Origin: Yuukianura sp. NJ FZ-2021
Lineage: Eukaryota
Direction: 5' to 3'
Length of the DNA: 64,000 nucleotides
Assembly (NCBI GenBank): GCA_046563655.1
Contig: CM102285.1
Span: forward strand, 1,116,001-1,180,000
The notes under the pieces are model-generated. The model had not been told where the DNA came from. It saw nothing but the letters and a program-made list of their open reading frames with translations, and did not search any database. Made by a program: the position numbers and the translations under genes. Shown one piece after another: positions 1 to 45,656 of this stretch (its first letter is position 1; every line of letters starts with the position of its first letter).

Positions 1-804
1 TGAAAATGAGGGAAAGTCAATTCCAAAGCTCATGCGCTGCCTGATTCCAATTTCGGCGCCAAGCCACCCGAAAAAATTGACGAACAAAGTGTACCTAAGT
101 TCAAATTCTGATACAAAATTTGAAACTTTATTTTTTATTGTAACTTTAAATATTTTATCACACTTTTATTTTTTAGGTTGATGGTTGACTTGGCGCTACC
201 AGTTGACGCTGCGAGTGGGTACCAACGTTTGGCGTTGCTCGAACGCCAAGCACAGAAGGAACGCATTGTCAAGTCGAGTTTGGTGACATATTTGTTATTT
301 CTTCTGAATGCTTCCATGCCAAAATGCTGGATGGTTCCAGTTCTTCCAGTAAACACAATACTTGCAAGTATATTTCCCGGACCAACAGAGCAATTTTATG
401 TTGGTGGAAACCCTGTGGAGGATATGGCGTACGCTTTGAATGGTGGAACTCATGGTACATATTTTTATAATGCATGCATTTTTATTAAAGCATCTAACCT
501 AAAATAGTAAAAGGGTTAGGTTATGTAATTATTATGTATATATATAGTGTCATGTCTAAGCGATATAACAACAATATATAACATGTACCAGAATATATAT
601 AACTAGAGCATATCTAAAGAATCAGAAATACTTTGTTTAATAGCACTGATTGTGAACATTTGTTCGTACAATGGAAACTTTCGATACTGGCTGGGAGTCG
701 ATGCTAAAATTTCCTCAACAGAACAAAACGCAGAGGAATTTGTTCAATACCTTGGCGATGAACTTCATGAGCTAATCAAATCAGAGTCTAATGTGACTGT
801 TTAA
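1..804 (+). CDS. WS/DGAT family wax ester synthase / O-acyltransferase, 3' part (exons <1-90, 177-454, 644-804)
   Basis: GT-AG splicing gives ENEGKSIPKLMRCLIPISAP..LTNKVLMVDLALPV..SIFPGPTEQFYVGGNPVEDM..ALIVNICSYNGNFRYWLGVD..*. This matches the WS/DGAT C-terminal pattern (PvslR..gN, SNvPGP..y..G..v, SY.G....g...D). The catalytic HHxxxDG motif would lie upstream of the window. Confidence 0.75.
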
Positions 805-1362
805 CTTTCATGAAACAAATCATGATTATTAATAAATTAATTAATTCATTAAAGATAAATTAACTCAAAACAACATGGGACAAAAAAACTCAACCTAAAA
901 TGTTTTTTGAATCAAGTTCTTGAAACAATTTTGAACTAAATGGCTTTCTTCCTTTCCATGTTGCGGCATAAATAAAAACTAGTGTTGGTGGATGCTTAAA
1001 CGTCCAGTGAATTAATTGCCACTTCCACTGGATATACACTGGAAGAAATGCACCCGAAATTGGTGAAACTTTTAACGAATAGAAGAAATTAAGAGTTTAT
1101 CGCGAAATTCAAAAAAATTCAAATTGAAAATTACAAAATGATATGCAAAGAGTTTCTTTCATCATTAAAATTAATTATTTTTTTTAAAAGTCATATAAAA
1201 ACGATATTTCCTTCGTTTTTGTACGGTATTTTGAATTCGTTTAAGCTTTATGTATTTAATTAATTCAAACCCCGCGGGCAAAGCTCCGCCCCCTTCGGTT
1301 CATCCATTTCGTCCATTTCTTCTACTGGATATCCAGCCGTGGATGAAATGTCGGAAAAGTAA

Positions 1363-1428
1363 ATCCGACGGCAACGTTTTTATCAGTGTTGATGGATGTC
1401 AACACTGATAAAAACGTTGCCGTCGGAT
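1363..1428. repeat. Perfect 30-bp inverted repeat with 6-nt loop
   Basis: atccgacggcaacgtttttatcagtgttga (1363-1392), loop tggatg, then the exact reverse complement at 1399-1428. Confidence 0.95.
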
Positions 1429-2574
1429 GCATACGAACTTTCCAACTTTCAAATCCTGCTCACAATGGGTTGAAGCATGTCGCGACGATGTCCAGATTTG
1501 TTTTCAAACGTTTTGTTTTCAAACGTCAAACGTTTGTTTTATCGAGTGGGTATTGGCGGATAAGTGTGGTAGCAATTTTTAGTACTTTGCCAATGTTTTG
1601 CTGAGTATTTTCAACGGCAACTTTCCGCTTCTCAACCGCCCAAACAAATTCTACTGGTTGAGGTCACAGTTGTATGGAGTAAGCCTAACGACCTCATGTC
1701 CGTTGGCTCTAATTGAGTTATCCACGCCGTAGTGATTTTCTTTTGTTTTAGTTTTTTACCATATCCCACAGGACATCACGTCGAGTTTCTGTCAAAGTTC
1801 CGAGGTGACAAAAAAAGATGACTTTGACCTTTGACCCTTTTAGACGTCACTCAACGTCATCAAAATCGGATCCCCGCAGACCCATTCCGAGTCTGCTATC
1901 CGTTTCCGTAATGTAAATGGGGCATAGCCTAGACCTTTGACACCATTGTAGATAACTTGAGGTGAATCCAAAAACTAATTTTTAGTTATCTGGTCAGTAG
2001 TTACTAATTGAAAAAAAAAACTCTTAGAAATTAGTGCAATGGTTGTCGAGTTAAGCATTGGACGGACAGACGGACGGATGGACAAAACGATCTCTAAAAT
2101 ATCTGACGATACTTATTAGTGACGAAACAAAAGGACTGATAATACTGACGAAACAAAAGGTGAGAGACTGAGTCCTAACGGCGAAATCCTACTTGGACGG
2201 AACATCAGAAATGCACAATACAATACGATACCTTCAGTACGTCAATTACCTTCAAACCCATTCGGGAATGCAAATTAAAAATAAACTTATCTCTTTCTTG
2301 TTTTATGACATTTTTTACAAATTAGTTAACCAACTTTCCAGTGAATTAGGATTAATTAAACTGTAATTAATAATTAATAAAATAAGAACAAAAGTTAAGT
2401 TTCACATCACCACATCTCAGAAAACAAACTTTGATTTTATGGAGCCCGCGGTCAATCGTTCGGTTGTTAACAAAGTGAGACAAGAACACGCAACTTGTGA
2501 CCATAAGAAGTCAGTTTTTGGGACAATAAGAAATTGCTTTATTGTTTCAACTTTGCAAATACAACGTAAACGTT

Positions 2575-3405
2575 TTACTTTCCAAATCGCTGTTCACTCT
2601 CTCCGAAAATCCGAAGCCAGTTTTCCAAATCCGTTTCATCGCATTCCGGGAAGTACTTGTTTTCGTAGTAAAATTCCGCATAAACCGATTGCCAAATTAA
2701 AAACCCCGAATTACGAAAGGTTCGCGAATCTTTTGCTCCAGTGCGCACAATCAAATCAGGTACTGGGTACTCATCTCCCGCCATTGAAACATACCCAGAG
2801 ATTGTTTCGACAGACATTTTTTCAACAGAATCAAGATGTTGAATTTTTCGAATTGCTTCTACAATGTCTTCCCGTCCACCATAGTCGATTGCAATGTTGA
2901 GACAATGGTCTGTTCTGGATTTCGATTCAGTTTCAATAGTGTTCATAAATTCAAGTATGCTTTTTGGTACTCTGTTCCTCTGTCCAATGAATCTCACTCG
3001 ACAATTGAATTTATCAGCAAGTTTTCTGCAAATTGAAAATTGTTGACCCAGTAACTTAAAAATAATTTCCAGTTCTGATTTCGGACGGCCAAAGTTGTCT
3101 GTACTGAGAATCCACATGGTAACTGTGTGAACTCCGCGTTCAAATGCTGCTTGTCCCAATTTGAAAAGTACGTCTATCCCTCTTGAGTACGCAGTCAATT
3201 TTGTCACATTTGCTTGGCGGGAATACCGACGATTTCCGTCTGGAATAATTCCGAGGTGTTTCACATTCGTCGACAGTGTTCGCTCTGGGGCCGGTTTACA
3301 GCCAATATCGGCATTGAGTTGCGATATTCCGTTACTTTTTGCATTGGATACCGATTTCAATCCAGGTTTGGTTTCGGTTACCGATTTTCCGCAACAATTT
3401 CCCAT
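2575..3405 (-). CDS. cis-prenyltransferase (UppS-like isoprenyl transferase), intronless, 276 aa, N-terminal MGNCC
   Basis: HLGIIPDGNRRY (region I), LSTDNFGRPKSE, IDYGGREDIV, PDLIVRTG..RNSGFLIWQSVYAEFYY..FPE and C-terminal RFGK, all in one uninterrupted ORF. Confidence 0.93.
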   Translation of the reverse strand: MGNCCGKSVTETKPGLKSVSNAKSNGISQLNADIGCKPAPERTLSTNVKHLGIIPDGNRRYSRQANVTKLTAYSRGIDVLFKLGQAAFERGVHTVTMWILSTDNFGRPKSELEIIFKLLGQQFSICRKLADKFNCRVRFIGQRNRVPKSILEFMNTIETESKSRTDHCLNIAIDYGGREDIVEAIRKIQHLDSVEKMSVETISGYVSMAGDEYPVPDLIVRTGAKDSRTFRNSGFLIWQSVYAEFYYENKYFPECDETDLENWLRIFGESEQRFGK

Positions 3406-4476
3406 TTGAAAAATAATTTTTAGAAGATAAAGCGTGTGCCTACTTTGTACCCAACCTTGAGCTTAAAGTTTAAATATTTTAAAAATCTAAAATTTAAAGT
3501 TCGAAAATTTCGGAACCGTTGTACCTTGACAGACAACCAACTTATGAGGAGTGACTTTTAGAAGATTTTTGGAAACAATTTTAAAGTAATGCGGAGTCCA
3601 GAAAAGTGTCACACGAGGAATGAGTTTCGCCCGTTTCTCAAAACGTTCTAGGGAGTTTTTTTTAAAGCCCTCAAAGTGTCATAAAAGTATAAAATTGTAA
3701 AATGGGTTTTAACGTAGAAAGTTTGAAATCGAAATGAATTTTTAAAACTTGATTCACATTGAATTGCGTAGTTGTAATTGTCACGTCTGAGAAAAAAATC
3801 TTGACGTAAATCAGTATTGACGGGGGTTGGATTCCACGTAGGGGCTTAATTTTTTTCACGTTAGCAAATCAAATTAGTGTCAAAAATTATTTTTAATTAT
3901 AAGAAATTTTATTGCCATTAACCAAATTAATTACTGCGGATGAAAACCACTCCTCATTTTAGTACCTACTATAATAAATTTCGCTTGACGTATCACATTC
4001 ACAATTCACACGAAAAGAATTCACGTAAAGGATAATTCTAGGTCATTGTTTCTGAATGCTATTTTGCCTTGATTGTTTCATGGTCACTTTTGTCAACTCA
4101 ACTTTTATCTAACTTTTCAAAAAGTTGGAATATTTGAGTTGATTATAATTTAAACTTATCATTTGATCAGATTGCGCAAATTTTCTATTGATTACAAATT
4201 TTTGTAGGATTCTCGGCACCTCAATTTTGTGATTTAGTCACATTTTTTATTTTTTGGCTGCCTTTAAATAATTTTAAATCAACTTTTGTCTGCCAACTTT
4301 TTGTTTTCTCAGAGAGAAGAAGAAGTTTGCTCCTGAGTGAAGAAAACTTAAGTATTAAAACTTAACATAACATAACATAAAATTCAAATTTAATTTAAAA
4401 AAAAAGAGTCGTGATTTAATTCAATCATATTGTAATACGAAATCCTAACTTAAGTAATATGACAAAAATTTGCGTT

Positions 4477-5378
4477 TTAGAAGCAAAGACAAGCCATTTT
4501 CCTTGAGATGCGCAAACGAGACCCATCTTTGCTTGAGTTGTGTTGCTCCTGCGCAGTTTTTGTATTCGCAGCGGCAACTGCCATTGTCAGTGGATGTGTT
4601 TCTTCCTTGTTCGTTTTTGTGGCTTTAGAGTCACGAATGAGTCGCAAGAGGTCAAAAAATGCTTTGTCCACATTTTCCCTTGTTTTGGCCGAAGTTTCAA
4701 CGTAGCTAACTTTCCAACTTCGCGCCATAAAATCTGCTTGTGACTTTTCCACTTTCCGACGGTCGCCAAGGTCACATTTGTTCCCCAGCAGAAGCAGAGG
4801 CACTGCGTCGGTGTCTTTCACCCTCAGAATTTGTTCCCTGGTTACCAAAAAACGAAATTTTGAAAATCAAAATTCAAAAAAAAAACCGAAAAGTTTTTGC
4901 ACATGCTCATGGAATCTCAACTTGCCTCATTTCTGCGCATGCCGTCAGACTATTTTCTTCAGTGATTGTGAAAACTGACAAAAAACCTTCGCCTGATCGA
5001 AAGTAGTTGTCTCTTATGGCTGCATAATCTTCTTGTCCCGCAGTATCCAAAATGTCTACCAAAATTTCATCACCATCCAGAATAACCTGAAACGTAAAAA
5101 TTAAAATTTTGAATTTTTACATTCTTAAAAATGAATCATGAAGGCCATAATTAGCTTAATTTTAGTGTTAGGTTTAAGTGTTAATTACTTTTTTTCTGTA
5201 GGAATCTGCTTTCGTGGGTTCGTAATTTTCTACAAATTCGTCATACATGAATTGCAGCGTTAGAGCACTTTTTCCCACTCCGCCTGCGCCAACCATGATG
5301 ATTTTGTACAGTGGAGGCTTGGCGATTCCCTTCGTTGTTTGGGCATCTGAACTCGTCGTGGCCTGTACAGTTCCATTT
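4477..5378 (-). CDS. Ral: Ral-family small GTPase (exons 5378-5189, 5086-4926, 4837-4477; start exon not located)
   Basis: [71 protein letters not shown] and C-terminal CLCF (CAAX-like). YEPTKADSY is the Ral-specific effector loop. Confidence 0.92.
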
Positions 5379-7715
5379 CTGCAAAAACAGAAAGACGAAA
5401 ATCAAATACCGTAAAATTCCTAATAAAAACCCAGGCTTGTATTCATTCCTCCCACTCTCTGACCCAGTTCGACTTAGAAACACAAAATTCCCTGACCTTT
5501 GACCTCTGGCCTTTGAATTGGTACACTTCGGTTAAGATCTCAGATGAAATCGTAGTTTACGATCAAACGATCATGAAAAAGAATGCCTGTGCAGTGTGGT
5601 TGGCTTCATTGCAAAAACTGCACATGCGCGTGGGAAATGGAACGTTACCTAGCGGAAAACGAAATTCACTTCCCTTTATTTACTAAAACGGTGAACACCG
5701 TGTGAAATACTTCGTCACTTTTTTTTTAAACCGTTTTTATTCCGCCGTATTTCTCAAATTTACACAACAAAGTTAAGAATTTATACGATACGCGCCGTTG
5801 ATTTTCGAATTTACTAAAGTAGTTTTTGTTTTGCCGCCAAAAAAAGGTGACAGGGGATTTTTGTTGTTTTTGTTAAAGGCAATGTTGTATGAAATTTAAA
5901 AGCAAGTTGGTAAAAATTAGGAACAGTTCAGTGTTAAACTGTGAGGAAAACAACGTTTTTTGCGAAGTCGTTTCGTGCAAGGTGGCTTGCATAATTTTGC
6001 CTTTAAAAAATTTGAATTTAAATTTGTACTTTACCGCGCGCCATAACACAGTGGTTGTTTTTTTTATTATTTGGTTCTCATGGAATTATATAAATTTTGT
6101 AAACAAACTAACTTATCAGTGTCATTTTGACACAAAAATTGAGGTACCGATTGATTTTTTGCCTCAAAATGCCTCACCCTCTAATGACAAACCCAACGGT
6201 GATTCGCGTTGTGGAAGCCTTGGTCTTCAATGTTTTGAGGTGGAACTCGGTAGATACTGCTTAATTATTACGCAAGGCTTATCCAAAGTGTTCCTAAATT
6301 CTTGTTTATTTTTGTTGTTGCAATAATCATAATTTGCGAATTTGTGATTTCGCACCGACTACTTGATGTTATACCATGATATTTAGCGTACTTTCGAAAA
6401 AAAAAACTGAAACCAAACATTCATTGTCTTTTGTGCCTGTTTGGTCGGTCGTCAATCAAGTCCAAGTCGTTTTTCGAGTCAGAGTCAACGGTTAATCCAG
6501 GCCCCACACTGTTTCCTTCTTTCAACCGTCTCAGTTGTCAATGGAAACGTTGTGATTAAAGTTTGTTTCAAATCAGAACCGAACCTTTTTTTCACAATCC
6601 GACCACTGTGCATAATAAACCTTGACCGCAACTGCATCATTGCCCTTAAGGAAAAACAGATTTTATTAAAGCCATTTTGCGGCAAGAATTTGGGTTTTGT
6701 ATTTGTGGAATTTGGGTTAGTGGCTCTGGTTGGCACGCCTTGGAGCAGAAGAAATTAGGTAAATGTCATGATCATGAACACATTTCACGAATAGCCCCAA
6801 GGCACATCTACTCACCCAAACACAGCGTGACCCCTATGACCCACATTTTGAAATTTCTGACCCATATTTTCACATTTATGACCAAAATTTTGACCCTCCT
6901 GACCTCCTGACCTCCATTTGGAGATTTTTGATCAAAATTTTGACTTTTCTGACAAAAATTTTAAGAAAAGACCCTCCTGGCACACATTTTCAGTGAAAAT
7001 GTGAGAATTTTTCATATGCGGATTGAGATCAGAGGATTAGGGTTACTCAAATCCTAGATTTTGGAACAAAATGGAAAGTTTTGAGGGTTGGTCGAAATCC
7101 TCAAATTTTGAAATTTGAGGTCACCCAGCCCTCTGATTTTTGAATTTTTTTAATTTGGAAATTTGGAAATATAGCTAAATAGGACTTGCCTGGACGGTCT
7201 AATTTTGGAAATTCTGAGAAATTTTTGTGCTCGATTCCACTGATTGTGAATTCCATTGCCACTGCGCAGAACGATTCTTCTGCCTTCTTGAATGACGGTG
7301 ACGCGCAGGTCCTGCACTCTTGTCAACAAAGGCATTTCAACAGTGTCTCCTTAGCTCATTTGCATAAATTCCACTTTCACTTAAGACAATACTGAAATTT
7401 CCAGTTTTTCAGTCCTCGCTTTCCATTGGTCACTTTCACACAAAATGAGAAGCCGCAGATTGGCCCTTTCTATTTCATTTCTAGATAAGTTCAAAAATTT
7501 GAACGTGAAATCTGAAACCAAGGTGTATTTTAAAAACAAGAATTTAGAAATTTTAAAAAAAAAATGAAAATTTGAAAATTTTACTGAGAGGATGACTCAC
7601 AGCGGAATGATGTGTACTGTTGGACTTGTTGAGCCTCTCTGTTGTTACTTCCTCAGGAAAATCGAGATCAGTATAACTTTCTTGTACCTTTCGCTTAGTC
7701 ATACTCATGTTAGCA

Positions 7716-8043
7716 CATGCCATTTTATCGAAAGAATTACAACGAAACAAATTTCTTCGAATGAATTTCCCCGAAATCACTTACAACGAAAGTCAAATTC
7801 CAACGAAAGTTGATATTACAACGAAAGTAGCTCTTTCGTTGAATTACAACTTTCATTGTAATTCATATTTCCTAGTAAAAAAAAATCAACTATCGTTGTA
7901 GTTTTGTAGTTCGAATTAGTAGTAATAATTCCACTTTCGTTATAATTGGTATCGGGGTAATTTGATTTTCGATGTTTAATTGTTTCTGGGAAATTCATTC
8001 GGAGAAATTCGTTTCGTTGTAATTCATTCGATGAAATGGCATG
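7716..8043. mobile_element. MITE/foldback element with ~55-bp imperfect terminal inverted repeats
   Basis: catgccattttatcgaaagaattacaacgaaacaaatttcttcgaatgaatttccc ... gggaaattcattcggagaaattcgtttcgttgtaattcattcgatgaaatggcatg, with internal acaacgaaa subrepeats. Confidence 0.75.
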
Positions 8044-10297
8044 AACCATCCCTCATGGTAAGCTTATATGAGCTCTTATTGTTAGCTCTTGAGAGTAGCC
8101 GGATGGGAGGCACTTGAAGGGGGTACTTGGCGAGGTGTGAAGTGTATCCGTTAGTTTGTCGTTTCCCCCTCTCCCTATTGTTCTATTTTGAACCTGTGCG
8201 TCCCATATCCCATGAAGTTTAGTAAGTATTATAAAGGCACGCAGGAAGTAACAGTTGACTCACACTATGCATTCTAATGAGTACGAGAATTTACAAAGGG
8301 ATCACCAATTGCAATTTGTAACCGTGGTTACGAGGAAGTGACGATATACGCTACTATAAAAAAAAACGCGTTTAAACCATTTTTTTTAAACCGCTCTTCC
8401 TCGGCGTAAAAATTTGCGAGCTTTGACACTTGATTAATTATTACTGGACATGAGAATGACTTTTGTTTAGCTCCCAAAGTACTAAGGATTTAACACTACG
8501 GAACTCTAAAAACTTACATCTTTAATAAGTTACATTACTTTTACGTTACGTAAAATCCAAAACAAGTTTTTTCAATTTCGTTAGTAAGCACCACGCTATG
8601 AATTCGCCCCCGCCGCCTTGCGGAAGAAACGAGAAAAACGTCTGCAGTTTCCCAACTTTTCAGAGAATTTGTCAGTTGCGTTGTTGAAATTTGACGTAAA
8701 GAGGGCGGACGGGAGTGCAGGATCTCTTGATACGAAATTCGAAAAATGTGAAATCAAGGGAAACTGGAATTGGCAATTTACGTTTAATTAAAATTTGGTT
8801 ATGGGCTTTGACAGGCTTAGTTATGAAAATGAACTTTTGTTAGGAAACATTCCAAAATACAAACATGATGAGCAAATGTTGTTCTTTACAAAAAAAAATA
8901 ATTTTAACACAAAATTTTTATTTTAGAATTTGCTATAAAAATAGAAATTTTCACAAAAAAAAAATTATTTTAGAATTTGATGTAAAAATAGAAATTTTGA
9001 GCAAAAGCACCTCAATTTTCTAAAGTCACACTTTTTTCTCTCATGGTCTCCACTTGTAATTTCTAATCCGAACAAGTGACAAAAACTGATTGGATTGTTG
9101 TTTTTGAAGGAATTTGCGGTTACGAAGGAAATTGGACAGAATGAACGTGTGAACCTGAGAACAGAAATGGGGAGGTCTACAATAACCTAACCTAAACCGC
9201 ACAAATTTCAAGTTGATTATGACTACGATTCAGAATTATTCAAACCAAAATTCAATTACGATTTACATTCCAACCACTACCGCAAATTTACACTCCACTC
9301 CAAATACCAATGTACACAAATCATCAATTTCCAATTTTTCAAAAACGAAGTTTCAAAAACTTTTCGCTTATGTGTTTCTGATAAGTTTTTTTTTTCCAAA
9401 AAAAAATCTCAACTGAAAAACATGAATAAAAACGAGGGATTTTTCATTTCTACGAAAATCTCGCTTCAAAATCCAAAATTTGCTAAATAGTGGCGTCCTG
9501 TTGTTAGGTTGTTTGTGTAGTGCCGACAAAAGAGACGACGGGGGAGGGGGATGCTTTCTCCATTTGTTAGGTTATGGCTCGGTGTTAAGCAAAAGGTAAA
9601 ATTGTTAGCCTAATTTCATGTTTTCCCTCAGTTCCTAGAAGGATGAGTGAAAAGTTCATCTTTCCTAATCTCCCGCTTCCTTTTGCCTCAAAATCAACTT
9701 GTAATCAATCAAAACGCCGAGAAAGGACCAAAAACTGTTTGAATAGCTCCCTGTCTCAAAATTACCGTAAAACTTCTAATAATTGCCCCCACAAATTTCA
9801 AAATCTGAGTTTATACTCCTATTCTCCTATTGATTCCGGCACTTATTGGAAATTTGACGGTAAGTGGCTAATCGTTTTGCGATGTAAGAGATGAAGAGAT
9901 TCTGTTTGATTTTGGATTTGGATTAATCGTGTTTAGTATTGGAATAAGGGAGGAGGGGGATGAGGAGGCGGAGCTTCGGGTGACTCCGCCTCCCTATTGT
10001 ACTTTTTTTAGGCCACGCCCACTGGATTCGTTAGATTCAGGCAGGTGAGAATGGAGTTGAGTCAGAGTAGAGCTGGATCTTGGGCACGTCTCACCTCAAC
10101 GTCTCGAAAGACAAAGACAATAGACATAAAACAATCAGACCAAGCTGAGGTACCCAAGGTACCCGGTCAACCTTGGCGTCGGTGGAACCTTGCGGGTCAA
10201 ATTGGAAGTGAGTGTGACTGTGATTTTTGAGTGAGGTCACGGAAGGTCACTGACTGGCGACATTCCTGGGCGACATTTGAGTTGCGTGTAAAGTCGG

Positions 10298-13110
10298 ATG
10301 ATGATGGACTTGAGTTGGAGTGGGAAGGGGCGAAGTGAGGCCGAAGTCCGCGGCGGGTCAATGGCTTCTGGAAGACCCGCCAAGTCACTCTTCTCCATCA
10401 GAGATCTAGTGGAGTGTGACAAGGATCCGCAAACTCCAGGTACGTTGGCAAGTTAGTTACATGATGCAGCCTGCATGATTATGTAACTTACATGATGATG
10501 TAAGGTAAATGAAAATGTCTTGGCCAAGGTTGCTATAGAACCCATTTATAAATGCGCTAACAGGTTATGCCATGACTCTGATTTAAAAAAAAACACGAAA
10601 AAAACAACTTTTGAACCAATTTTGTTTACTTTCACAGCAATCTTTTTTTTCAATTTTCACGTTGTTAAGCCATAGTTCTATTTCGAATTGCTAATAAAAC
10701 GAAGCTGCATCAGATAGGCGGTTCAAAAAATTTGAAAATTTGAAAAGTGGAGTTATGGTATAACCTGTTAAGAAAAAATAACAAAATTTCTTGGTATTTA
10801 CTACACCGATTGAAGGCTTTGGGACTGATTTTTATGTAATTTTTGACATTGAAGATGGTGCTGGAGAAGACAGTCGGAAGCGAAGTGTGTCTCCGTCACA
10901 TGCGCACTCCAAGGGCTCTTCCCCTACGCATTCCCTGGATGATGCTGATGGATTGTCAGAAGGCGGGTCAGAGGGTACTGATGACCTTCCGAAGCGGAAA
11001 CAACGCAGATACAGAACTACTTTCACCAGTCTTCAACTAGAGGAACTCGAGAAAGCTTTTGCACGCACGCACTACCCAGACGTCTTCACAAGGTCAGCAC
11101 AAAATTCCCTAGCTATTATGCAATAAGGTCAAAAGTAATTTGGTCGAAAAACAAAAAGTTCAAAAATACAAAACGAAAAAGAAAAAAACTCTGCAAAACC
11201 CAGACTTGTCGAATCCATTTTCCGTTTTCTTAATTGGACGATATAAATTTTTTTTTTGCTCAACTTGCCACTTCTTTTCTTGAAATTTTGATTTTTAAAA
11301 TTAATTTTGTGAAATCTCCAGGTTGTGAACTTTCATTGCTTGAAATTTACAGTGTTTGACCGTTTTCATTTTTTTGAATTTTACTTTTTGACATTTTTTT
11401 TTTGAAGTTTCACTTTTTGACCAAATGTTTTTTTTACATGGAACTGGAACTCCGCAACCTTGAAAGTGTTAATCTGTGGCGTTGGTTGCCCTTAATAGTT
11501 TTAAAAGGAAAAAGTGATTAGGACCTTAAAAAAGGTACGGAGATTTGTGGAAAATCTTTGGAGAGAGATCAAGATTTTTTTCATAGAAACAAAAAAAAAA
11601 CCAAAGTTTGTTCAAGGTTAAATGTCCAATGGAGGATGGAGTGTTAATTGAGTTTGAAAATCCAATTAGGCCTCAATTAATGGACTTAAGTGGAAGTACT
11701 AATAATATTTTGGTTTTAGGGAGGAACTGGCCATGAAGATCCAGTTGACAGAGGCCAGAATCCAGGTAAGATGCTGTCACACCTTCTCAGTCTCAGTTAA
11801 TGTTAAGAGTGCTAATCGGAGACTGGGCACTTCTCGCTTATCGCCAAAGTGCACTTTGACTCTAATGGACTCAGCAATTGACTTCATTATGACACAAACT
11901 TCCCAAAAGCATTCCACAGCCACGCAGTGAACAAAGTTAGGCTTTAACTCGAGGGAATTCGGAGGGATTCGGAGGAATTCGGTAGAAACCAAGCTCGGGA
12001 AAAATTGGTTGAAAAAAATTTTGAATTTTTTTTTTTAAATTGCGAGAGAACAATTGAATTAGGAAGTATTAGGAATCTCACGGCCACTTGAGCATTAATT
12101 GCATCTTCAAATTACACTTCAATTACAATTCACAACATTCGTGATTTGACTCGTGTCAGGCTCTGGTTGGAAGTTTAGACATTAGGTTTGGTACAACAAA
12201 TTGTCACTCATTATGTCAATTAGTCACTTGCAAGATAATGTTGCATTCCACATTCATTCCACAATCCACAATCATTCCACATTCAATCCACAATACAAAA
12301 TCATTCCACATTTAAGACTATGAAACAGCCTCCCCTTAGCAATTTTCAAAATTTAAAACCCAAAACTAATGAATTCTTGGAAAATCTGTAAATTTATAAA
12401 CTGAAAAAATTTTCACTCAAATTAGCAAGAATTTATCTGGATTCTGATTGGTTTGAATTTTATTTCAGGTTTGGTTCCAAAATCGGAGAGCAAAGTGGCG
12501 AAAAAGCGAGAAGGTGGGACCACAAGCTCATCCTTACAATCCATTCGGAACGACCACGGTGGGGCTCGGTGGGACTCAGCAACCCACCCAAGTTTCTCAA
12601 CCTTCCGGCATTCCATTCCCACCTCTCTATCTCCGTAAATCTCTCGACCCACCGACAGTCCTTCCCCACAGAATTCCCCACCCCTGGTCCCACCACCCCA
12701 TCCCACCCCCTTACTTCCCCCACCCACTCGCCCCCTCGACTAACCACCTCAACGGAATGAGAACAGGGGGTCATGGGTCAGCATTTCTGAGTCACCAGGC
12801 AGCAGCGTATTTGCACTCTGGTGGGCCCTCATTTCAGAACTTGTTGGCTCAACTGAACGGCGCCGCCGCGGCGGCAGCAATGCAGCACCACCAACTCCTC
12901 CTCCACCAACCACCGCCATTTCCACCACTTACGACATCAACTGCGTCTGAATTCGTACTGAAGTCTTATCCTTCTGACAACTCACGTAGTCCTATCCAGA
13001 CTTCTGGAAGTGACAGCGAAGAGAGTAACCATGGTAACCAACCACTAAGTAACGATCTGAAGAGAGACGAAGTGAGTGTGCGTAGAGGTCCTGACGACAT
13101 TCTCATCTGA
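10298..13110 (+). CDS. al: Aristaless paired-like (Q50) homeobox protein (exons 10298-10439, 10855-11092, 11720-11765, 12469-13110)
   Basis: The spliced homeodomain [74 protein letters not shown] closely follows arthropod aristaless. Exon 1 has an eh1-like FSIRDLV motif. All junctions are GT-AG and in phase. Confidence 0.92.
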
Positions 13111-26600: not shown

Positions 26601-28640
26601 GCAATGTCTGATCTGGTACGGTCTCATGCTAAAGCGGTTGCTAATGGCGCGGGAGTTTGCGAGGTTTGAAATGTAGACGTTCCAAAAATATTTAGTTCCC
26701 ATGCCTGTAATGTTAACAATATCAATATTTTGGGATTTTTTATTACTAAATATTTATTGATTTTCCCATCCCCTTAAATGTTAACTAACTAAATATTTTG
26801 AGGTTTTCGATGAAAAATATTTAATATTTAAATATTTCGCCGTTTTTAGTAAATATTTTTGGCATGTCTAGAAATAACGAGCTTCGTCGTCTGCGTTTTT
26901 ACAAGGTTTCATTGTTGTCTGAAGTAGAAATGGTTTGAATTCGGTTGTTTACTGCTGAAATACTTGGAAACAGAAGTCTAAACAGCACGTGTCTGTGCTA
27001 ATTAATGTTGTTGATGTTAGTTTTAGACATAATATAGAGTATTTATAGAGATCGTGGGAGTACTGGATATGTAAGTTTCTGTGAAAGTGTCAATGTCAGA
27101 AAACGAGTCAAGGGGAAGGAAGATCATGTGTTGGCCAAGAGAAAAGTAATGATGGGGGACATGTCAAAAAAACTTTCATTTCGTTTCTCCATGCTCTGCA
27201 ACATCCACATCCACCTCCTCTTCGTCTGCTCTTCTAAATTCAAACATCTTAAACACATCTAAAACGACAAGCGACAACCAATTCAGAGGCATAAAATTAA
27301 AACTACGCCACCAAAAGACTTAAAAATATGCCAAAATCCTCTCTGTCCAAAACTCAACAAGATGATTCAATCCTTCCAAAAGTACCTAAAGGTATTCTCA
27401 CAAGAATCTACTCAACTGAATGGGAGCGTGTTGAGGACACAATTTTTTGTAACTCTCAGTTTCTCTGCGCGTGTAATTTTATAGTTCCAGAAATTTCCGA
27501 CTTCATTCTAAAAACTTGGCTTATGAGCGTCCAGAAAAATTTCAAAGGTTTGACAACAGCCGCTGAAATCTCGGACGCAGAAAAAGTGTTTCCCAATTAC
27601 TATGCTTGCATCAAATATCTGCGAATCTAAAAAATCTTTTTCGCAACAAATTCTTCAAACTGCGAAATTTTAATCGTTACCTATATTGTTAAGAGGTTTT
27701 TTGGTTTTAGCTAGAATAGACATTAGCCAATTTTTAACCAAAATTTTTAAACAATTGCAACGTTACGTGGAGTAAAAACCGCTTTCATCCCGACTTTAAG
27801 CACAGTTCACACAACACTTTGATTCCATGCAGTTTGAATATTTCCGAATTGAAAATACTGTGTAACTAACACTAGTGTCCTCTGAAAATTAGTTCTATTG
27901 TTAGTATTACATATAGTACATATAGTACTGTGGTTCGGCTTACTTGTTAGTAGTTTTCTGTCTAGTAATGTTCTTATACTATTGTCTCAAGCAACGTTAA
28001 GTGGAATTTAGAAATCAAATTAAAATTGAATGCCAAAATTGGGATTTGGGTTCAAACTAAATTCAAAAACAAAATCGGGATCAAAATCTCGAAAATTCTC
28101 GGCCAGACAGGGAACGCCAGACAGGGAATGACCAAAAAGTAAAAAGGCTAAAAAGTGAAAAGATGAAAAAGTGAAATGGCGAAAATAAGAAAAGGCCAGA
28201 AAGTCAAAGGACTAGAATTAGGAGAGGAAAAAAGGTTTTCAATGGGTAACTCGGATTTTCTTCATTTTTCTTTACAAATACCTTTGACCCCTTGACCATG
28301 AATATATATATATATATTGTTTTCGAATTTATAGAATATTTCGCTTATATTTTATATAAGCAAAACATAGGCACAACATAGGCAAAACATAGCCAAAACA
28401 GGCAAAACATAGGCACAACATAGGCAAAACATAGCCAAAACCAGGGTTCGAAGGCTGTAACTTACGTCCTGTAACTTACGTACGCAAGTTACGTAATTTT
28501 CAGAAGGGTTGTAATTTTCATTCTTTTGAATTTTACGCGGGAGGGAGACAGCGTAGGAGTCAGAGGAGCGGGAGAAGTCCAAAATAACAATTTAAACAAA
28601 CAATAAGAGCAGTGATTTAGATGATTATTTTTTCGGTTTT

Positions 28641-29766
28641 TTCTCGAGCAGACTGCTCGAGAAATACCAGGATATTCTTCGAGCAGTCTGCTCGAGAAAT
28701 ACCGTGATAATTCTCGAGCAGTCTGCTCGAGAAATACCAGGATATTCTTCGAGCAGTCTGCTCGAGAAATACCAGGATAATTCTCGAGCAGTCTGCTCGA
28801 GAAATACCAGGATATTCTTCGAGCAGTCTGCTCGAGAAATACCAGGATAACTCTGGAGCAGTCTGCTCGAGAAATACCAGGATATTCTTCGAGCAGTCTG
28901 CTCGAGAAATACCAGGATAATTCTCGAGCAGTCTGCTCGAGAAATACCAGGATATTCTTCGAGCAGTCTGCTCGAGAAATACCAGGATAATTCTCGAGCA
29001 GTCTGCTCGAGAAATACCAGGATATTCTTCGAGCAGTCTGCTCGAGAAATACCAGGATAATTCTGGAGCAGTCTGCTGGAGAAATACCAGGATATTCTTC
29101 GAGCAGTCTGCTCGAGAAATACCAGGATAATTCTGGAGCAGTCTGCTCGAGAAATACCAGGATATTCTTCGAGCAGTCTGCTCGAGAAATACCAGGATAA
29201 TTCTGGAGCAGTCTGCTCGAGAAATACCAGGATATTCTTCGAGCAGTCTGCTCGAGAAATACCAGGATAATTCTCGAGCAGTCTGCTCGAGAAATACCAG
29301 GATATTCTTCGAGCAGTCTGCTCGAGAAATACTAGGATAATTCTCGAGCAGTCTGCTCGAGAAATACCAGGATAATTCTCGAGCAGTCTGCTCGTGAAAT
29401 ACCAGGATAATTCTCGAGCACTCTGCTCGAGAAATACCAGGATATTCTTCGAGCAGTCTGCTCGAGAAATACCAGGATAATTCTCGAGCAGTTTGCTCGA
29501 GAAATACCAGGATATTCTTCGAGCAGTCTGCTCGAGAAATACCAGGATAATTCTCGAGCAGTCTGCTCGAGAAATACCAGGATATTCTTCGAGCAGTCTG
29601 CTCGAGAAATACCAGGATAATTCTCGAGCAGTCTGCTCGAGAAATACCAGGATATTCTTCGAGCAGTCTGCTCGAGAAATACCAGGATATTCTTCGAGCA
29701 GTCTGCTCGAGAAATACCAGGATAATTCTCGAGCAGTCTGCTCGAGAAATACCAGGATATTCTTCG
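28641..29766. repeat. 35-bp palindromic tandem satellite, ~32 units, mostly a 70-bp dimeric higher-order repeat
   Basis: Core (tt)ctcgagcag-t-ctgctcgag(aa) plus ataccag, followed alternately by gatattcttc or gataattctc. Confidence 0.95.
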
Positions 29767-29805
29767 TAGCTTTTCTTTCTGTTGTTTTAACTGGCTGTTA
29801 TTGAA

Positions 29806-30030
29806 ATGCCACGAGTCAGAGATCCGATTTGGAACGATTTTGACCTTGAACCAAACCCGGGCAGTAAGATCCCCTAGGCAAATTGTAAGTTGTGTGATTG
29901 GAGACATGCAGGAATCCCGGACAGGATGAAATCACACTTACAGAAACATCAAAACGTTGGCAAAGACTCCGAATCAATTTTGGCCAAGTACGTCATGTTC
30001 ACTTTAATATTTTCAGAGTCTAATTGTTGA
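29806..30030 (+). pseudogene. hAT transposase N-terminal BED zinc-finger remnant with an in-frame stop
   Basis: MPRVRDPIWNDFDLEPNPGSKIP*ANCKLCDWRHAGIPDRMKSHLQKH fits the BED pattern W..F...CxxC...HL..H; no catalytic domain follows. Confidence 0.75.
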
Positions 30031-31766: not shown

Positions 31767-32986
31767 ATGGTAAAGTTTCAAAATTTTTCTGTAAAAGTCT
31801 CAACCTTCACTTCTGCAGCATATCATTTTACCCAATTTGTTTTCGAAGATTTCACAAAAATTTTAATTGTTTCAACGTTTTTCCCGATTTATTTCTCAGA
31901 AAAGTGAAACTTTTTAAAAAGTCTCTGAATTCAGTATTTAAAACGGAAACCTTCTCCACGTTTCCAGCTCTAATAAAAAATATTTTAAAGTGGGTTCTGC
32001 CGGTTGTAAACTTTGGAAGCTTTAAAAAAATGTATCAAAATGAGAAAATACTTAAAATTTTTTTTGCATTGTTGGATTAGCACTCTTCTCAAGAAAACAT
32101 CGATGAAGGACACCACGTCACTTTGTTCCCAACGCGCCTGCGTGAATTTGACGAAAAGAACAACCTTGTTTTTCATCATTACCTCAGCGCCAAGGAAGAG
32201 CTGCGACGCAACTCAGACACACCCTCTTTTGGTGACCAGTATACACGCAGGCTGTCCTTTCATGAAGACCGCATCGACGGAGATGACGAAGTCTTCAACG
32301 GTAAAACACAGCAATTAATTACTTTTCATGAACTACTCAATTACATATTTATTTATATATTTATTTATGCATGTGTTTAAAATGTTTCACACGAGTAGCC
32401 ATGAATAAGATCTTCCGTCGTTCATCCATTGTGGACCCGAATGTCCCAAAAGTGCGGAAGGAAGTTCTGGAAACGCGTTTGATCCCAATCATTTTTGCAA
32501 AGTTGGGCCAGGAGTACGACACTGAAGAGCTACGCAAGTGGATCAAAGGACAAGACAGACACGGTTAGTTACTTTTATTATTTAATATATTATACAAAAT
32601 ATACATAATTAAATTTAGAGCTACTGGCATTATGAAATATGTCGTAACTCAGAAGAGTGGCAGATATTTGTAACCTTGCCCTCTGTCACTCTTCTCCTCG
32701 ACGGAGGGTGCTGATTGCTAAATCGGCAAACAAACATTACTCAAAACTTTTTTTTAAATTCTAAAAACATAAACCATTTTTCATGTTTTAAAAATTTGCG
32801 TTGGATTTCTTAGGTACTGGAGTTGTGGACTTTGATGGTTACCAGCGCATTTGTGTCCACTTTGTCAAGGACCCAGAAGCCATTGAGCGAGCGAAAACAC
32901 AGGAATTTTCATTTGAGAATCTCGTCAGTCGTTCTCAGTCGGACGAAGACGTTTCTAAGAACGAGTCAGAAGAATGTTCACAGTAA
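31767..32986 (+). CDS. Truncated troponin C/calmodulin-derived EF-hand protein, copy 1 (exons 31767-31769, 32081-32300, 32399-32563, 32814-32986; 186 aa)
   Basis: AMNKIF..LETRLIPIIFAKLGQEYDTEELRKWIKGQDRHGTGVVDFDGYQRICVHFVKDPEAIE resembles the arthropod TnC N-lobe and linker. Introns fall after the ATG, in phase 1 before helix A, and in phase 1 in the DxxG/G loop, as in calmodulin-family genes. Confidence 0.8.
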
Positions 32987-35950: not shown

Positions 35951-37230
35951 ATGGTAAAGTATAAAAAAAGTTTTAAAATTTTCCTTTAATAATTTCCCAG
36001 TTAAACTTCTGCAGCTTAAGAATTTATCCCATTTTTTTGAATTCACAAAAAATTTACATTCTGAAAGTCTTTCTTAATCTAATTCTCCGAAAACTTTTTT
36101 TTCTTTTCAAGAGTCTCGATTCTCGAAATTTAGTAATTATTAGCAACAGTATCAAAATCTTGTACAATTTTCCAGTTCTAAAAACATTTTAAATTGAATT
36201 CTGTAAATTGCAAAGTTTTGAGACTTTTGAAAATAAAACTGTTAAAATGAGAAAATACTTAAAAATTTTTTCTGTATTTTTGGATTCTCAGTCTTCACAA
36301 GAAAGCCTCCACGAAGAGCACCATGCTACTTTGTTCCCAACGCGCCTGCGTGAATTTGACGAAAAGAACAACCTCATTTTTCAGCATTACCTCAGCGCCA
36401 AGGATGAGCTGCGACACAACTCAGACACACCGTCTTCTGGTGACCAGTATCCCCGCAGGCTGTCCTTGCACGAAGACCTTATCGACGGAGATGACCAAGT
36501 CTTTAACGGTAACAACAGCAATTAATTACTTTTCATGAATTATGTAATTAAACATTTATTTATATATAATTTTGTATATGTTTAAAATGTTTTAGCCGTG
36601 CGGAATATCTTCCGTCGTTCATCCATTGTGGACCCGAATGTCCCAAAAGTGCGAAAGGAAGTTCTGGAAACGCGTTTGATCCCAATCATTTTTGCAAAGT
36701 TGGGCCAGGAGTACGACACTGAAGAGCTACGCAAGTGGATCAACGGGCAAGACAAACACGGTTAGCTATTTTATTATTTATAGTATAGCATTTTATATAT
36801 AATACACATAATATGTAATTCCATTTACTCCAAATATCAGAATACTGGCATATATTACATAATTTATATTTTAAACATAAATTCAAATATACATAGTAAT
36901 TAAATTTTGAGCTGCTGGCCACACCGCCAGCAAACGTTACTCGAGAACTTTTTAAAAAATCCAAAAAGCTATAACATTTTGCATCTCTTAAAAATTGGTA
37001 TTTTTTAAATTTTTAAAAAATTTTTAGGTACTGGAGTTGTGGACTTTGATGGCTACCAGCGGATTTGTGTCCATTTTATCAAGAACCCAGTAGCCATTGA
37101 GCGAGCGAAAACACAAGAGTTTTTATTTGAGAATCTCGTGAGTCGCTCTCAGTCGGACGAAAACGTTTCTAAGTCAGCAGAATGTTCACAGGAAGAAAGT
37201 CCGCGCAGTGAGGAATTACGGAACGACTAA
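35951..37230 (+). CDS. Truncated troponin C-derived protein, copy 2 (exons 35951-35953, 36292-36508, 36596-36760, 37028-37230)
   Basis: Paralogue of copy 1 with an intact frame; the exon 2 acceptor is shifted by one codon (ttag replaced by ttctcag). Confidence 0.78.
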
Positions 37231-44127: not shown

Positions 44128-45656
44128 CTACTGCGCAGGTACAATTTCCATTTGGAGTGTTCCGTATCTGCTTTTGCGCTGAGCTCCAATGACATTGGCG
44201 TAGATTTGTCCATCTATGAATTCCACTGCAAATTGGGCCAGTCTAGCCACCGACTCTTCGTCAGGAAAAGCATCTACCAGTTTCTTGGCGCAGACTTTGA
44301 TGTCCTTGATGATACTGCGCAGTCGCCTTGTCTCGAGATCAACAGCATCCTGGAGTGACATTCCCTGCTCGACCACTCTTCTGAGAACCACCGTAGCATC
44401 GGTATCTCCCGTGACAATATCTTTGTTCACTCCCAGAATGTCGTTGATGAGTCCTCCGAAGATCCGCATATTTTCAGACAGGATTCTGAACAACAAAGAC
44501 TGACGGACGTGACTTGGCAACGTCGCTTCTGCCACCACGGCTCCAAGTTCTGCAAAAACGCCGAGCCCTGCATCGTAACCACGAATGACCCGCTTGGCCT
44601 CTTCACTGAATACGTCACCTTCGGTTTCTGAATGGAGAGATTCCAGGTTGAGGAAGACTCCTTCTGCTGAAATGAAGAGTGACCTCATAATGGGGCTCAC
44701 ATCCGCAGCGGGAATTACTTTTTGAATTTTCCTCATGGCAGCCACGAACACTTCGTAGCAAGTGTCCCACCCAGGTACAAGTGCAGTCAACTCCTTCACT
44801 CTTTCAAGCTCTCCCGCAAAAACTTTCTCCCAAACATTGTAGTTTTTGTACAGAAAACTCGTGGTAACCTTGACAAAAAAAAATTCAGAAATTACGAGAA
44901 AACTCAATCGGGGAGCAGCCTGTTTTTTTTTTCATGAGTCCAAATTGAAAAAAAAAATGTTTCTCACAGTGCCCCAGTTTGTGTGCACCCCTCGAACATT
45001 CCCTCCTACAATTTCCCGGGCCGGGTAGAGTTGCTTTGAAAGTCAATGCTTTTTCATACCGCCTATCATTATTGAGGCGACTGGGGAAATGTGAAAACGT
45101 AATTGTCAATTTGGACCGAGAACTTTTAAACTTTTGTTTTGGGCTTACTTGGAATGGAAACTCGTCCATGTTGTCAAAGAGATCGTCACTGAAGTAGGCA
45201 CTGTCGATCATGTCCAACACAACTTCAAAGAGGGGGCTATCTGTAGGGACACGAGGAAAGCACAGGGCAGCGACAATGTTGATTGTGCGACACCAATGTC
45301 GCAATTGCTCTTCGTCCCACTCCTCATGCAGTCGCCCACACCGCTTCACCGTATTCTCCAAAATCACATTCTGCTCTTCTTCACTCAGTCCAAAGTATGT
45401 CGACACTGGAAATGACCTAAACATATAACAAACAATTGAAGATTCAGTTTTCAAAAAACAAAATTTCAAAGTTTTGAAAAAACTTTGAGAAATGATACCC
45501 CATGGGGAGCAGGAAGTGAAGGTGGCCTTTGAGCTCTTGAGCTTGTCCATAGATTGGATGGTCGATTGGTCCGAAGTTAAAGTTGAGCTGGAGTGGCGTC
45601 CCTTCAGCGACGCTGTCCAAACAGCCAAGCTCCGCGTAAAGTGGTAAAGTGCTCAT
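44128..45656 (-). CDS. Microbial-type class I terpene synthase (proposed exons 45656-45499, 45416-45149, 45033-44968, 44868-44128; ~410 aa)
   Basis: DDLFD (DDxxD), IRGYDAG (effector Arg), NDILGVNKD (NSE/DTE variant) and C-terminal RY occur in the expected order and spacing. Exon phases are consistent if the AAG acceptor at 45034 is used. Confidence 0.85.

Follow-up and report, generated by a model that had tools for sequence, protein, structure and literature searches.

A 64,000-nucleotide stretch of contig CM102285.1 of Yuukianura sp. NJ FZ-2021 (hereafter, the window, with positions counted from its first letter) encodes on its minus strand, next to a Ral-like GTPase gene, a single-exon cis-prenyltransferase (cis-PT) of the homomeric UppS type. 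The encoded protein, denoted P0001, on balance appears to be a self-sufficient cis-prenyl diphosphate synthase, ultimately of bacterial origin and acyl-tethered, that probably serves specialised terpenoid metabolism and not dolichol synthesis; we give this interpretation, which is based on sequence comparison, somewhat more than even credence. The closest relatives of its cis-PT domain are natural fusions with a terpene synthase, and a terpene synthase gene is present in the window itself. This connection, absent from an earlier sequence-only reading of the same DNA, changes the likely role of the cis-PT.

A homomeric-type cis-prenyltransferase

The gene comprises the following elements:
2575..3405, minus strand: coding sequence of the cis-PT (P0001), a single exon of 276 codons plus a TAA stop at 2575-2577
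3385..3405, minus strand: codons 1-7, MGNCCGK, the predicted start and a candidate signal for N-myristoylation (Gly2) and S-palmitoylation (Cys4, Cys5)
3265..3384, minus strand: linker, residues 8-47, low-complexity and predicted to be disordered (AlphaFold2)
3226..3243, minus strand: PDGNRR, residues 55-60, holding the catalytic Asp56 that corresponds to D26 of E. coli UPPS
2716..2739, minus strand: extended loop GAKDSRTF, residues 223-230, between Arg221 and Arg231 (R194 and R200 of E. coli UPPS), eight residues against a family norm of four
2578..2589, minus strand: C-terminal RFGK, residues 273-276 (the RxG motif)
2538..2543, minus strand: AATAAA polyadenylation-type signal, 32 nt past the cis-PT stop

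This open reading frame (ORF) opens with the first ATG to follow an in-frame TAA (3463-3465). P0001 matches the Pfam family PF01255 over the entire profile (1-219 of 219, E 8.3e-51, 173.1 bits against a cut-off of 27), the domain beginning at residue 54, and exceeds the cut-off of the NCBIfam model TIGR00055 (uppS) with 152.8 bits against 109.55. In a 13-row alignment with E. coli UPPS and relatives, it keeps 16 of the 16 invariant columns, with D56, G57 and R60 conserved in all 13 rows. The equivalences between the E. coli enzyme and P0001 are D26 and D56, N28 and N58, R30 and R60, S71 and S101, N74 and N104, R77 and R107, D190 and D217, R194 and R221, R200 and R231, S202 and S233, E213 and E244, R242 and R273, and G244 and G275. 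The catalytic Asp and all diphosphate ligands for isopentenyl diphosphate (IPP) and farnesyl diphosphate (FPP) of E. coli UPPS are present, H43 excepted, and W75 is replaced by Phe. The RFGK end aligns with its counterpart in A. baumannii UPPS, also RFGK, as well as with R242/G244 of the E. coli enzyme. The PDGNRR motif and the terminal RFGK, both of which had been read from the letters, are found at residues 55-60 and 273-276.

The AlphaFold2 model of P0001, built on a 79-row alignment, has a mean predicted local distance difference test score (pLDDT) of 87.8 and a predicted template modelling score of 0.82. Residues 1-40 have a pLDDT of 42-51 and residues 41-50 one of 75; over most of the domain it is 93-98, and the means of 10-residue blocks across residues 51-270 lie at 85-98. 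Foldseek relates the predicted model to structures of UPPS and of lavandulyl-PP (LPPS), neryl-PP and Z,Z-FPP synthases (E 1e-21 to 1e-19), with target template modelling scores of 0.74-0.92 among the 34 chains listed and ~0.9 to UPPS/LPPS structures. By its predicted structure, P0001 has the zeta fold of the cis-prenyltransferase superfamily.

PMC7573591 describes short- and medium-chain cis-PTs as homodimers and long-chain ones as heteromeric, places the RxG motif of the human cis-PT on NgBR, and names L137 of UPPS as setting the chain length; DHDDS-type subunits are described there as lacking an RxG of their own, carrying a C-terminal helix-turn-helix, needing a partner and making C70-C120 chains. 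P0001 has its own RxG and no C-terminal partner-binding extension, its chain ending at RFGK. Against solved structures it scores 124 bits with A. baumannii UPPS (6acs), 116 with the Campylobacter, 114 with the S. aureus and 105.5 with the E. coli enzyme (1jp3). The plant plastid enzymes reach 91-99 bits (tomato NDPS1, 7vpc, 94; zFPS, 5hxo, 91; CPT2, 8wu6, 97) and M. tuberculosis Rv1086 79.9, whereas human DHDDS (6w2l, 6z1n) reaches 65.6 bits with a match that spans residues 48-255 only. In a phmmer comparison the E. coli UPPS obtains 105 bits, and the Paramecium proteins CPT1a and CPT1b, taken from the supplement of PMC12998183, obtain 51 and 49 bits. The assignment to the UppS type with its own RxG, as opposed to the DHDDS type, was already part of the sequence-only reading and is borne out by these comparisons: judged by its sequence features, P0001 is of the homomeric type and not of the DHDDS type.

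Fusion proteins and the loop-extension clade

Database searches yielded no relative more than 41% identical to P0001. In a collection of 5.8 billion proteins, 296 of 708 candidates matched it at E <= 0.001, the best with 39-40% identity, and many of the matches are Patescibacteria-type proteins of ~426 residues; in the short-protein class, two of 20 candidates matched, both at 41% identity and bacterial-type by name. The Atlas look-alikes of P0001 are prokaryote-type UppS clusters only (0.92-0.93). An exhaustive search of 1.84 billion representatives produced 9910 matches, the best of which, P0124 (663 residues, 177.7 bits), combines in one ORF a terpene synthase domain (PF19086, E 2e-16, residues 191-308) and a cis-PT domain (PF01255, E 1.2e-45, residues 444-662). 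Of the 23 representatives scanned with Pfam, only P0124 contains a terpene synthase domain; acylphosphatase, NUDIX or subtilase domains are found in eight others, and 14 have PF01255 alone. The fusion is found in two metagenome contigs:
L001:4860-6989: terpene synthase/cis-PT fusion ORF (P0124), on a 7259-bp contig
L002:302-2380: second copy of the fusion ORF, 86% identical to L001 in amino acid sequence

L001 contains no other long ORF in its 7.3 kb, and its flanks have 33-42% GC compared with 46-49% in the gene. Both fusion ORFs are without a start codon and begin right past a pyrimidine-rich, splice-acceptor-like AG. Between the two copies, dN/dS amounts to 0.087 in the cis-PT domain, compared with 0.356 in the terpene synthase domain. 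From these features, both fusions look like functional eukaryote genes.

P0001 and P0124 align without gaps (BLASTP) through a segment that reads RTGAKDSRTFRNSGF in P0001 (residues 221-235) and RTGSKDAGTVRISGF in P0124, and that contains the extended loop. When the R194-R200 spacer was extracted from 272 family rows with a regular expression, it was four residues long in 247 rows and 3-6 residues in seven others, with 12 rows unmatched; the short insertion claimed for P0001 in the sequence-only reading is thus real, its spacer having eight residues. A spacer of 8-9 residues occurs only in P0001, P0124, the L002 ORF, P0126 and P0026. An eight-residue spacer match in P0127 was rejected as spurious, lying at a clearly different site.

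The five loop-extension rows form a clade, supported by an ultrafast bootstrap of 99 and an SH-aLRT (SH-like approximate likelihood ratio test) value of 96 in an IQ-TREE analysis of 73 chosen rows (39 rows from the FastTree neighbourhood, 14 that are named or serve as references, and 20 more), and by a value of 96 in the 272-row FastTree, which leaves out five rows with short coverage. In the IQ-TREE phylogeny the sister of this clade consists of six unnamed rows (92/84), followed with weak support by a Patescibacteria group. One member, P0126 (236 aa, metagenome), has the extended loop together with the changes N28 to E, N74 to S and E213 to K and with RFE in place of RxG, and may be inactive or a regulatory paralogue.

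The superfamily itself is known; what appears to be new is the loop-extension clade, with its eukaryotic hosts and its connection to terpene synthases. Neither an animal-encoded UppS-type cis-PT nor a natural terpene synthase/cis-PT fusion was found described in the literature searched, whose coverage of subscription journals and supplements was partial. A mealybug study reports only DHDDS-like cis-IDS (cis-isoprenyl diphosphate synthase) genes together with a symbiont UPPS (PMC10960109), a sponge study covers only trans-prenyltransferases (PMC13483135), an octocoral paper contains no occurrence of 'prenyltransferase' (PMC12685057), and a mite paper contains neither 'prenyl' nor 'undecaprenyl' (PMC6275457).

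The terpene synthase gene and the proposed function

The terpene synthase gene of the window consists of two exons in a by-eye model:
44128..45424, minus strand: microbial-type terpene synthase gene of class I, 41 kb upstream of the cis-PT and sharing its strand
45424-45149, minus strand: first exon, with DDLFD
44868-44131, minus strand: second exon, with NDILGVNKD, joined to the first through a GT-AG intron

The encoded protein matches PF19086 in Pfam with E 5.6e-7, has an Atlas feature score of 0.96 to PF19086 clusters, and is 23% identical to the terpene synthase domain of P0124 (E 6e-10). A microbial-type terpene synthase gene is unusual for an animal genome. The two domains are fused in the relatives; in the window the two genes are found 41 kb apart on the same strand, with unrelated genes between them.

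We propose that P0001 would condense IPP onto an allylic diphosphate primer with the help of Asp56 and Mg2+, the diphosphate of IPP being held by Arg221, Arg231 and Ser233. In a homodimer, the C-terminal RFGK of one subunit would close off the active site of the other, in which case no NgBR-like partner would be needed. Since members of the clade include natural terpene synthase/cis-PT fusions, the product is expected to be a cis-prenyl diphosphate other than dehydrodolichyl diphosphate, and in the simplest case could be used by a class I terpene synthase, for instance that encoded 41 kb away. A non-dolichol product had been put forward in the sequence-only reading as well, and we grade that claim as plausible. 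The N-terminal MGNCCGK, together with the flexible linker, would probably anchor the enzyme, through myristate and palmitate, to a membrane on its cytosolic side.

A broader proposal, which we offer only tentatively and consider possible but not probable, is that these genes belong to an undescribed eukaryotic pathway in which a bacterial-type cis-PT makes neryl, Z,Z-farnesyl or nerylneryl-type substrates for microbial-type class I terpene synthases of animals. Such a pathway would be the animal equivalent of the system in tomato trichomes and would come in two architectures, one fused, as in L001 and L002, and the other with a separate, lipid-anchored cis-PT, as in the window.

The N-terminal extension

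The N-terminal MGNCCGK and the ensuing ~40-aa low-complexity linker are both present as they had been described from the letters, and the model of P0001 contains no secondary structure ahead of residue 50. In the N-myristoyltransferase pattern, Gly2 is combined with a small residue at position 6, where Gly is acceptable, and a basic one at position 7. The start of P0001 (M1 G2 N3 C4 C5 G6 K7 S8) has the Met-Gly, the small residue 6 and the early Cys of dually acylated sequences. In the literature, MGNCC is the N-terminus of plant calcium-dependent protein kinases (CDPKs), which are listed as myristoylated and palmitoylated when residue 6 is small; in a table of maize CDPKs, MGNCCA.. is predicted to be myristoylated, and MGNCCR.., MGNCCV.. 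and MGNCCP.. are not. An acylation signal in P0001 is therefore plausible, dependent on residue 6 and, by its sequence, not specific to animals. The lipid anchor of the sequence-only reading, there called animal-style, is a candidate read from this motif, which also opens plant CDPKs. None of the relatives of P0001 keeps the MGNCCGK N-terminus.

The nearest upstream AG (~3437) has no pyrimidine tract, which speaks weakly against a hidden upstream coding exon.

Residence of the gene in animal-type DNA

The neighbours of the cis-PT gene include the following:
4477..4866, minus strand: last coding exon of a Ras-family (Ral-like) GTPase (Pfam Ras, E 6.3e-17), the upstream neighbour
5177-5401: further Ras-family exon (Pfam)
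10782-13110: paired-type homeobox gene, split across exons
184-504 and 607-801, plus strand: two last exons of a putative WS/DGAT-type acyltransferase gene, cut off by the left edge of the window

The gene at 4477-4866 is presumably a Ral, as judged from a 17-residue signature. It shares the strand of the cis-PT, and 1.07 kb separate its stop codon from the start codon of the latter. Five public sequencing runs match positions 2300-5000, four of them from one sample and one from another organism and another study. Among the contigs of the four-run sample aligned to 1-9000, three overlapping ones, covering 2569-3000 (X3 record 10), 2731-3699 (X4 record 19) and 2973-4884 (X1 record 5), join the cis-PT ORF to the last Ral exon; the last of these, 1912 bp long, leads from inside the ORF into the Ral exon with 0 differences. 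The continuity of the contig, which had been flagged as a point to confirm, is supported by these overlaps, from runs that may be the source of the assembly.

In composition, the cis-PT ORF (GC 41.4%, and 36.5% at third codon positions) resembles seven neighbouring exons (41-54% and 35-50%, respectively), and its flanks are non-coding, have 30-34% GC and contain no bacterial gene. There is also no excess of bacterial signals in 2200-4500, where sigma-70-like promoter sites number six against 7.7 expected and intrinsic-terminator-like sites are absent (0). The observation that a single-exon gene lies here among intron-rich neighbours holds as well: Ral has at least two Ras-family exons, and each of the homeobox, DUF2465/FAM98, tetraspanin and terpene synthase genes likewise consists of more than one exon. 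Taken together, the residence of the cis-PT ORF in animal-type DNA beside Ral is supported.

Furthermore, the same sample contains a second sequence that is ~86% identical to the window over 2965-3575 (X1 record 4, with 84 differences and 19 gap letters); two more contigs (X3 record 11 and X4 record 20) also carry this ~86% sequence of the 5' part of the cis-PT. In the other organism, a 332-bp contig (X5 record 27) is ~85% identical over 2571-2911, the 3' part of the cis-PT. Since the Ral exon contig of that organism has only six differing positions, this cis-PT contig may be a paralogue rather than an orthologue. For the additional sequences as a whole, paralogues, divergent alleles and orthologues all come into consideration.

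Origin of the gene

In the best IQ-TREE phylogeny, the five-row clade is found inside a 63-row set with E. coli and Patescibacteria (99/99), and Thermus, archaea and Paramecium fall outside. A scan of GTDB genomes yielded at least 567 confirmed relatives, among the 600 stretches listed; the best 80 of the 567 are 27-35% identical to P0001 and come from many phyla, with no donor emerging among them. Named prokaryotes reach at most 40% identity in the protein search and 35% among the GTDB matches listed. A viral vector was considered and set aside: 23 of 80 IMG/VR stretches encode relatives, including giant-virus bins, with only 20-29% identity.

Horizontal acquisition by some eukaryotic ancestor appears likely from these sequence comparisons. 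The sequence-only reading had proposed a horizontally acquired gene, and the best tree, which nests P0001 among bacterial and environmental sequences, agrees with it; the approximately unbiased (AU) test discussed below, the lack of a close prokaryote among the matches and the location of the nearest relatives on eukaryote-like contigs make it less certain.

Points against the proposed function and alternative explanations

Several observations weigh against the proposal that P0001 is a functional, ultimately bacterial enzyme of terpenoid metabolism. The 15 narrow NCBIfam models of the NF0xxxxx series (14 equivalog and one subfamily) all stay far under their cut-offs of 304-535 bits, and the Pfam score of 173 bits compares with 184-334 bits for the other 17 prokaryote-type relatives scanned; because of these low family scores, the P0001 clade is best regarded as divergent in sequence. 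H43 of E. coli UPPS is replaced by Tyr73, a change that is also seen in the environmental relatives P0026, P0141, P0176 and P0216. The tunnel positions differ from the E. coli enzyme (A69 to I99, A143 to I173 and L137 to H167, and also A47 to Ile), and Ile, Leu or Met at the 143 position is found in ordinary Patescibacteria-type UppS rows too; the chain length is unreadable from the P0001 sequence.

The fusion relatives are only 37% identical to P0001, and L001 and L002 share no further DNA with the window by blastn, their host being not close. The terpene synthase gene is separated from the cis-PT by 41 kb that include Ral, the homeobox gene and repeats, and the association between the two was made post hoc. 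The start codon of the MGNCC N-terminus is a predicted one. There is no RNA run among the public runs matching 2300-5000, which bears neither way on expression, and the four-run sample may be the own source of the assembly, so that the linkage to Ral is not independent. Finally, when the five rows were forced together with the two Paramecium rows, lnL fell by 30.46 and the AU test did not reject the grouping (p 0.097), the group having been chosen after the tree was seen and Paramecium being the one DHDDS-type lineage in the tree.

The last result leaves room for an origin without bacterial transfer, in which the gene would represent an old eukaryotic cis-PT lineage, a sister of DHDDS or an organelle-type remnant, that was lost in most animals. 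The same explanation draws on the placement of three of the five clade members on eukaryote-like DNA (the window, L001 and L002) and on the distance to any named prokaryote in the best 80 of the 567 GTDB matches. It has to contend, however, with the best tree, which leaves Paramecium outside, with the RxG that the clade keeps and DHDDS-type subunits lack, with a DHDDS match of half the score that ends before the C-terminus, with an intronless gene among neighbours that are all split, and with the failure of searches with P0001 to find a closer homologue in the 5.8 billion proteins; we consider it unlikely. Far less probable still, to the point that we would be greatly surprised by it, is a contaminant or assembly chimera, in which a gene from a bacterium or symbiont would have been misjoined to the animal sequence. 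The best named relatives are indeed prokaryotic and the bridging runs may be the window's own assembly data, but the 1912-bp contig leads into the Ral exon with 0 differences, the flanks are AT-rich, non-coding and free of bacterial genes, no prokaryote among the matches is more than 40% identical, and another study contains a related sequence from a second organism.

With respect to the role, P0001 could, like bacterial UPPS, make a C50-C60 polyprenyl diphosphate for polyprenol or polyprenyl-ester lipids or for a glycan carrier, with no tie to terpene synthases. Medium-chain UPPS structures score best (124, 116 and 114 bits, compared with 79.9 for Rv1086, 90.7 for the Z,Z-FPP synthase and 93.9 for the neryl-PP synthase), helix 3 of P0001 shows no deletion when compared with that of A. 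baumannii UPPS, and the terpene synthase gene lies 41 kb off; the WS/DGAT-type gene, which ends 1.8 kb away, might perhaps supply esterification of a polyprenyl product. However, bit scores follow ancestry and not product length, bulkier residues stand at the positions of A69 and A47 of the E. coli enzyme, and the nearest relatives are fused to a terpene synthase and under purifying selection, which is hard to fit to a C55 carrier role for the clade. This role therefore seems to us rather doubtful. Less probable than either a medium-chain role or an old eukaryotic lineage is a silent or decaying gene, left by a recent insertion without a function in the host, as might be suggested by the divergence of the clade with its low family scores and by the Tyr in place of H43. 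Such decay is at odds with a frame that is open for 276 codons in DNA of 37% GC and keeps 16 of 16 invariant columns, with a composition that matches host exons, and with the gain of a poly(A) signal and of an N-terminal extension of eukaryotic type; moreover, the ~86% sequence in the same sample and the ~85% sequence in the other organism indicate a family maintained in more than one copy.

Other features of the window

The WS/DGAT gene is convergent with the cis-PT gene and lies 1.8 kb from its 3' end. Its assignment comes from two collinear weak Pfam matches to WS_DGAT_C, one over profile positions 21-99 (E 3.8e-4, 21.0 bits against a cut-off of 20.7) and the other over 103-144 (E 0.14). 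PDZ, BED-finger, TMEM220, tetraspanin, DUF2465/FAM98 and SDR exons are also present in the window. TGACGT sites, which resemble the cAMP response element (CRE), are not enriched upstream of the cis-PT, with 29 in the window against 23.3 expected.

At 901-1500, 1801-2100, 6001-6600 and 7501-8100, the contig depth is tens to hundreds of times that of the surroundings in all four of the runs that were aligned; these stretches are therefore dispersed repeats, bracketing a single-copy cis-PT/Ral block.

Three tandem exon copies spaced ~4.2 kb apart (32081-32377, 36193-36522 and 40635-40925, plus strand) encode a peptide of the form ..TLFPTRLREF.EKNNL.FHHYLSAK..DGDD.VFNG; they have no Pfam match and look like a small tandem-duplicated gene family. 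A long tandem repeat at 28355-29931 keeps minus-strand frames open for 200-390 codons, with ..YPGISRADCSRIILVFLEQTARRISWYFSSRLLE.. repeated, and its Pfam matches are low-complexity artefacts, with no significant single stretch. Two adjacent BED zinc finger exons at 50130-50904, minus strand (E 1.9e-8 and 2.4e-5), suggest a ZBED-type, possibly transposase-derived gene.

Implications and comparison with known systems

To our knowledge, animals are thought to have a single cis-PT system, the heteromeric DHDDS/NgBR that makes the dolichol precursor, and discussions of the terpene synthases so far described from animals assign them all-trans substrates. An enzyme of the UppS type that needs no partner would, if confirmed in an animal, represent a second, independent source of isoprenoid chains, and the fusion of its relatives to terpene synthases predicts animal terpene skeletons derived from cis-prenyl diphosphates. 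The enzyme pair and the natural fusion are ready material for testing this idea by expression. The gene would, in addition, clearly exemplify how a metabolic gene of bacterial type gains eukaryotic signals, here a poly(A) site, the composition of its host and a lipid-anchor motif. If its product were an ordinary C55 chain, it would be one more foreign-looking gene in an animal genome.

Compared with bacterial UPPS (6acs, 1jp3), P0001 has the same fold, catalytic and substrate-binding residues and C-terminal RxG of its own, and by analogy would be expected to act as a homodimer. The differences are a sequence identity of 28-30% to the solved structures, an R194-R200 loop of eight residues instead of four, Tyr in place of H43, bulkier side chains at A69 and A47, a 47-residue eukaryote-type N-terminal extension with the acylation motif, and a location in animal DNA with a poly(A) signal. 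With human DHDDS/NgBR, yeast Rer2/Nus1 and Paramecium CPT1/POC1, the enzyme has in common the superfamily, the chemistry and a eukaryotic host, whereas the catalytic subunit of the human DHDDS/NgBR heteromer has no RxG and needs a partner, and P0001 ends at RFGK.

The tomato plastidial cis-PTs NDPS1, zFPS and CPT2 offer an analogy for the working model of P0001, in that they are homomeric UppS-type enzymes in a eukaryote that provide cis-prenyl diphosphates for class I terpene synthases. Plant plastidial cis-PTs are usually traced to cyanobacteria; the tomato genes are reportedly clustered with terpene synthase genes, and trichome terpenes are said to be cyclised from cis-prenyl diphosphates. 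We know of nothing like this system from an animal. Unlike P0001, the tomato enzymes carry plastid transit peptides, and by score they are not grouped with its clade.

The fungal bifunctional terpene synthases of the fusicoccadiene-synthase type unite an N-terminal cyclase and a prenyltransferase in one polypeptide, as L001 and L002 do, but the prenyltransferase is an all-alpha trans enzyme in the fungal proteins and a zeta-fold cis enzyme in the L001/L002 fusions. These fusions are the closest relatives of P0001 in the cis-PT domain (177.7 bits, 37% identity) and belong to the same clade (99/96); in both cases this domain is intron-free and lies in AT-rich, gene-poor DNA. In the fusions, the cis-PT forms the C-terminal half of a protein of at least 663 residues, behind PF19086, and ends with RLGK, whereas P0001 stands alone with an acylation motif and is accompanied by a separate two-exon terpene synthase gene 41 kb off.

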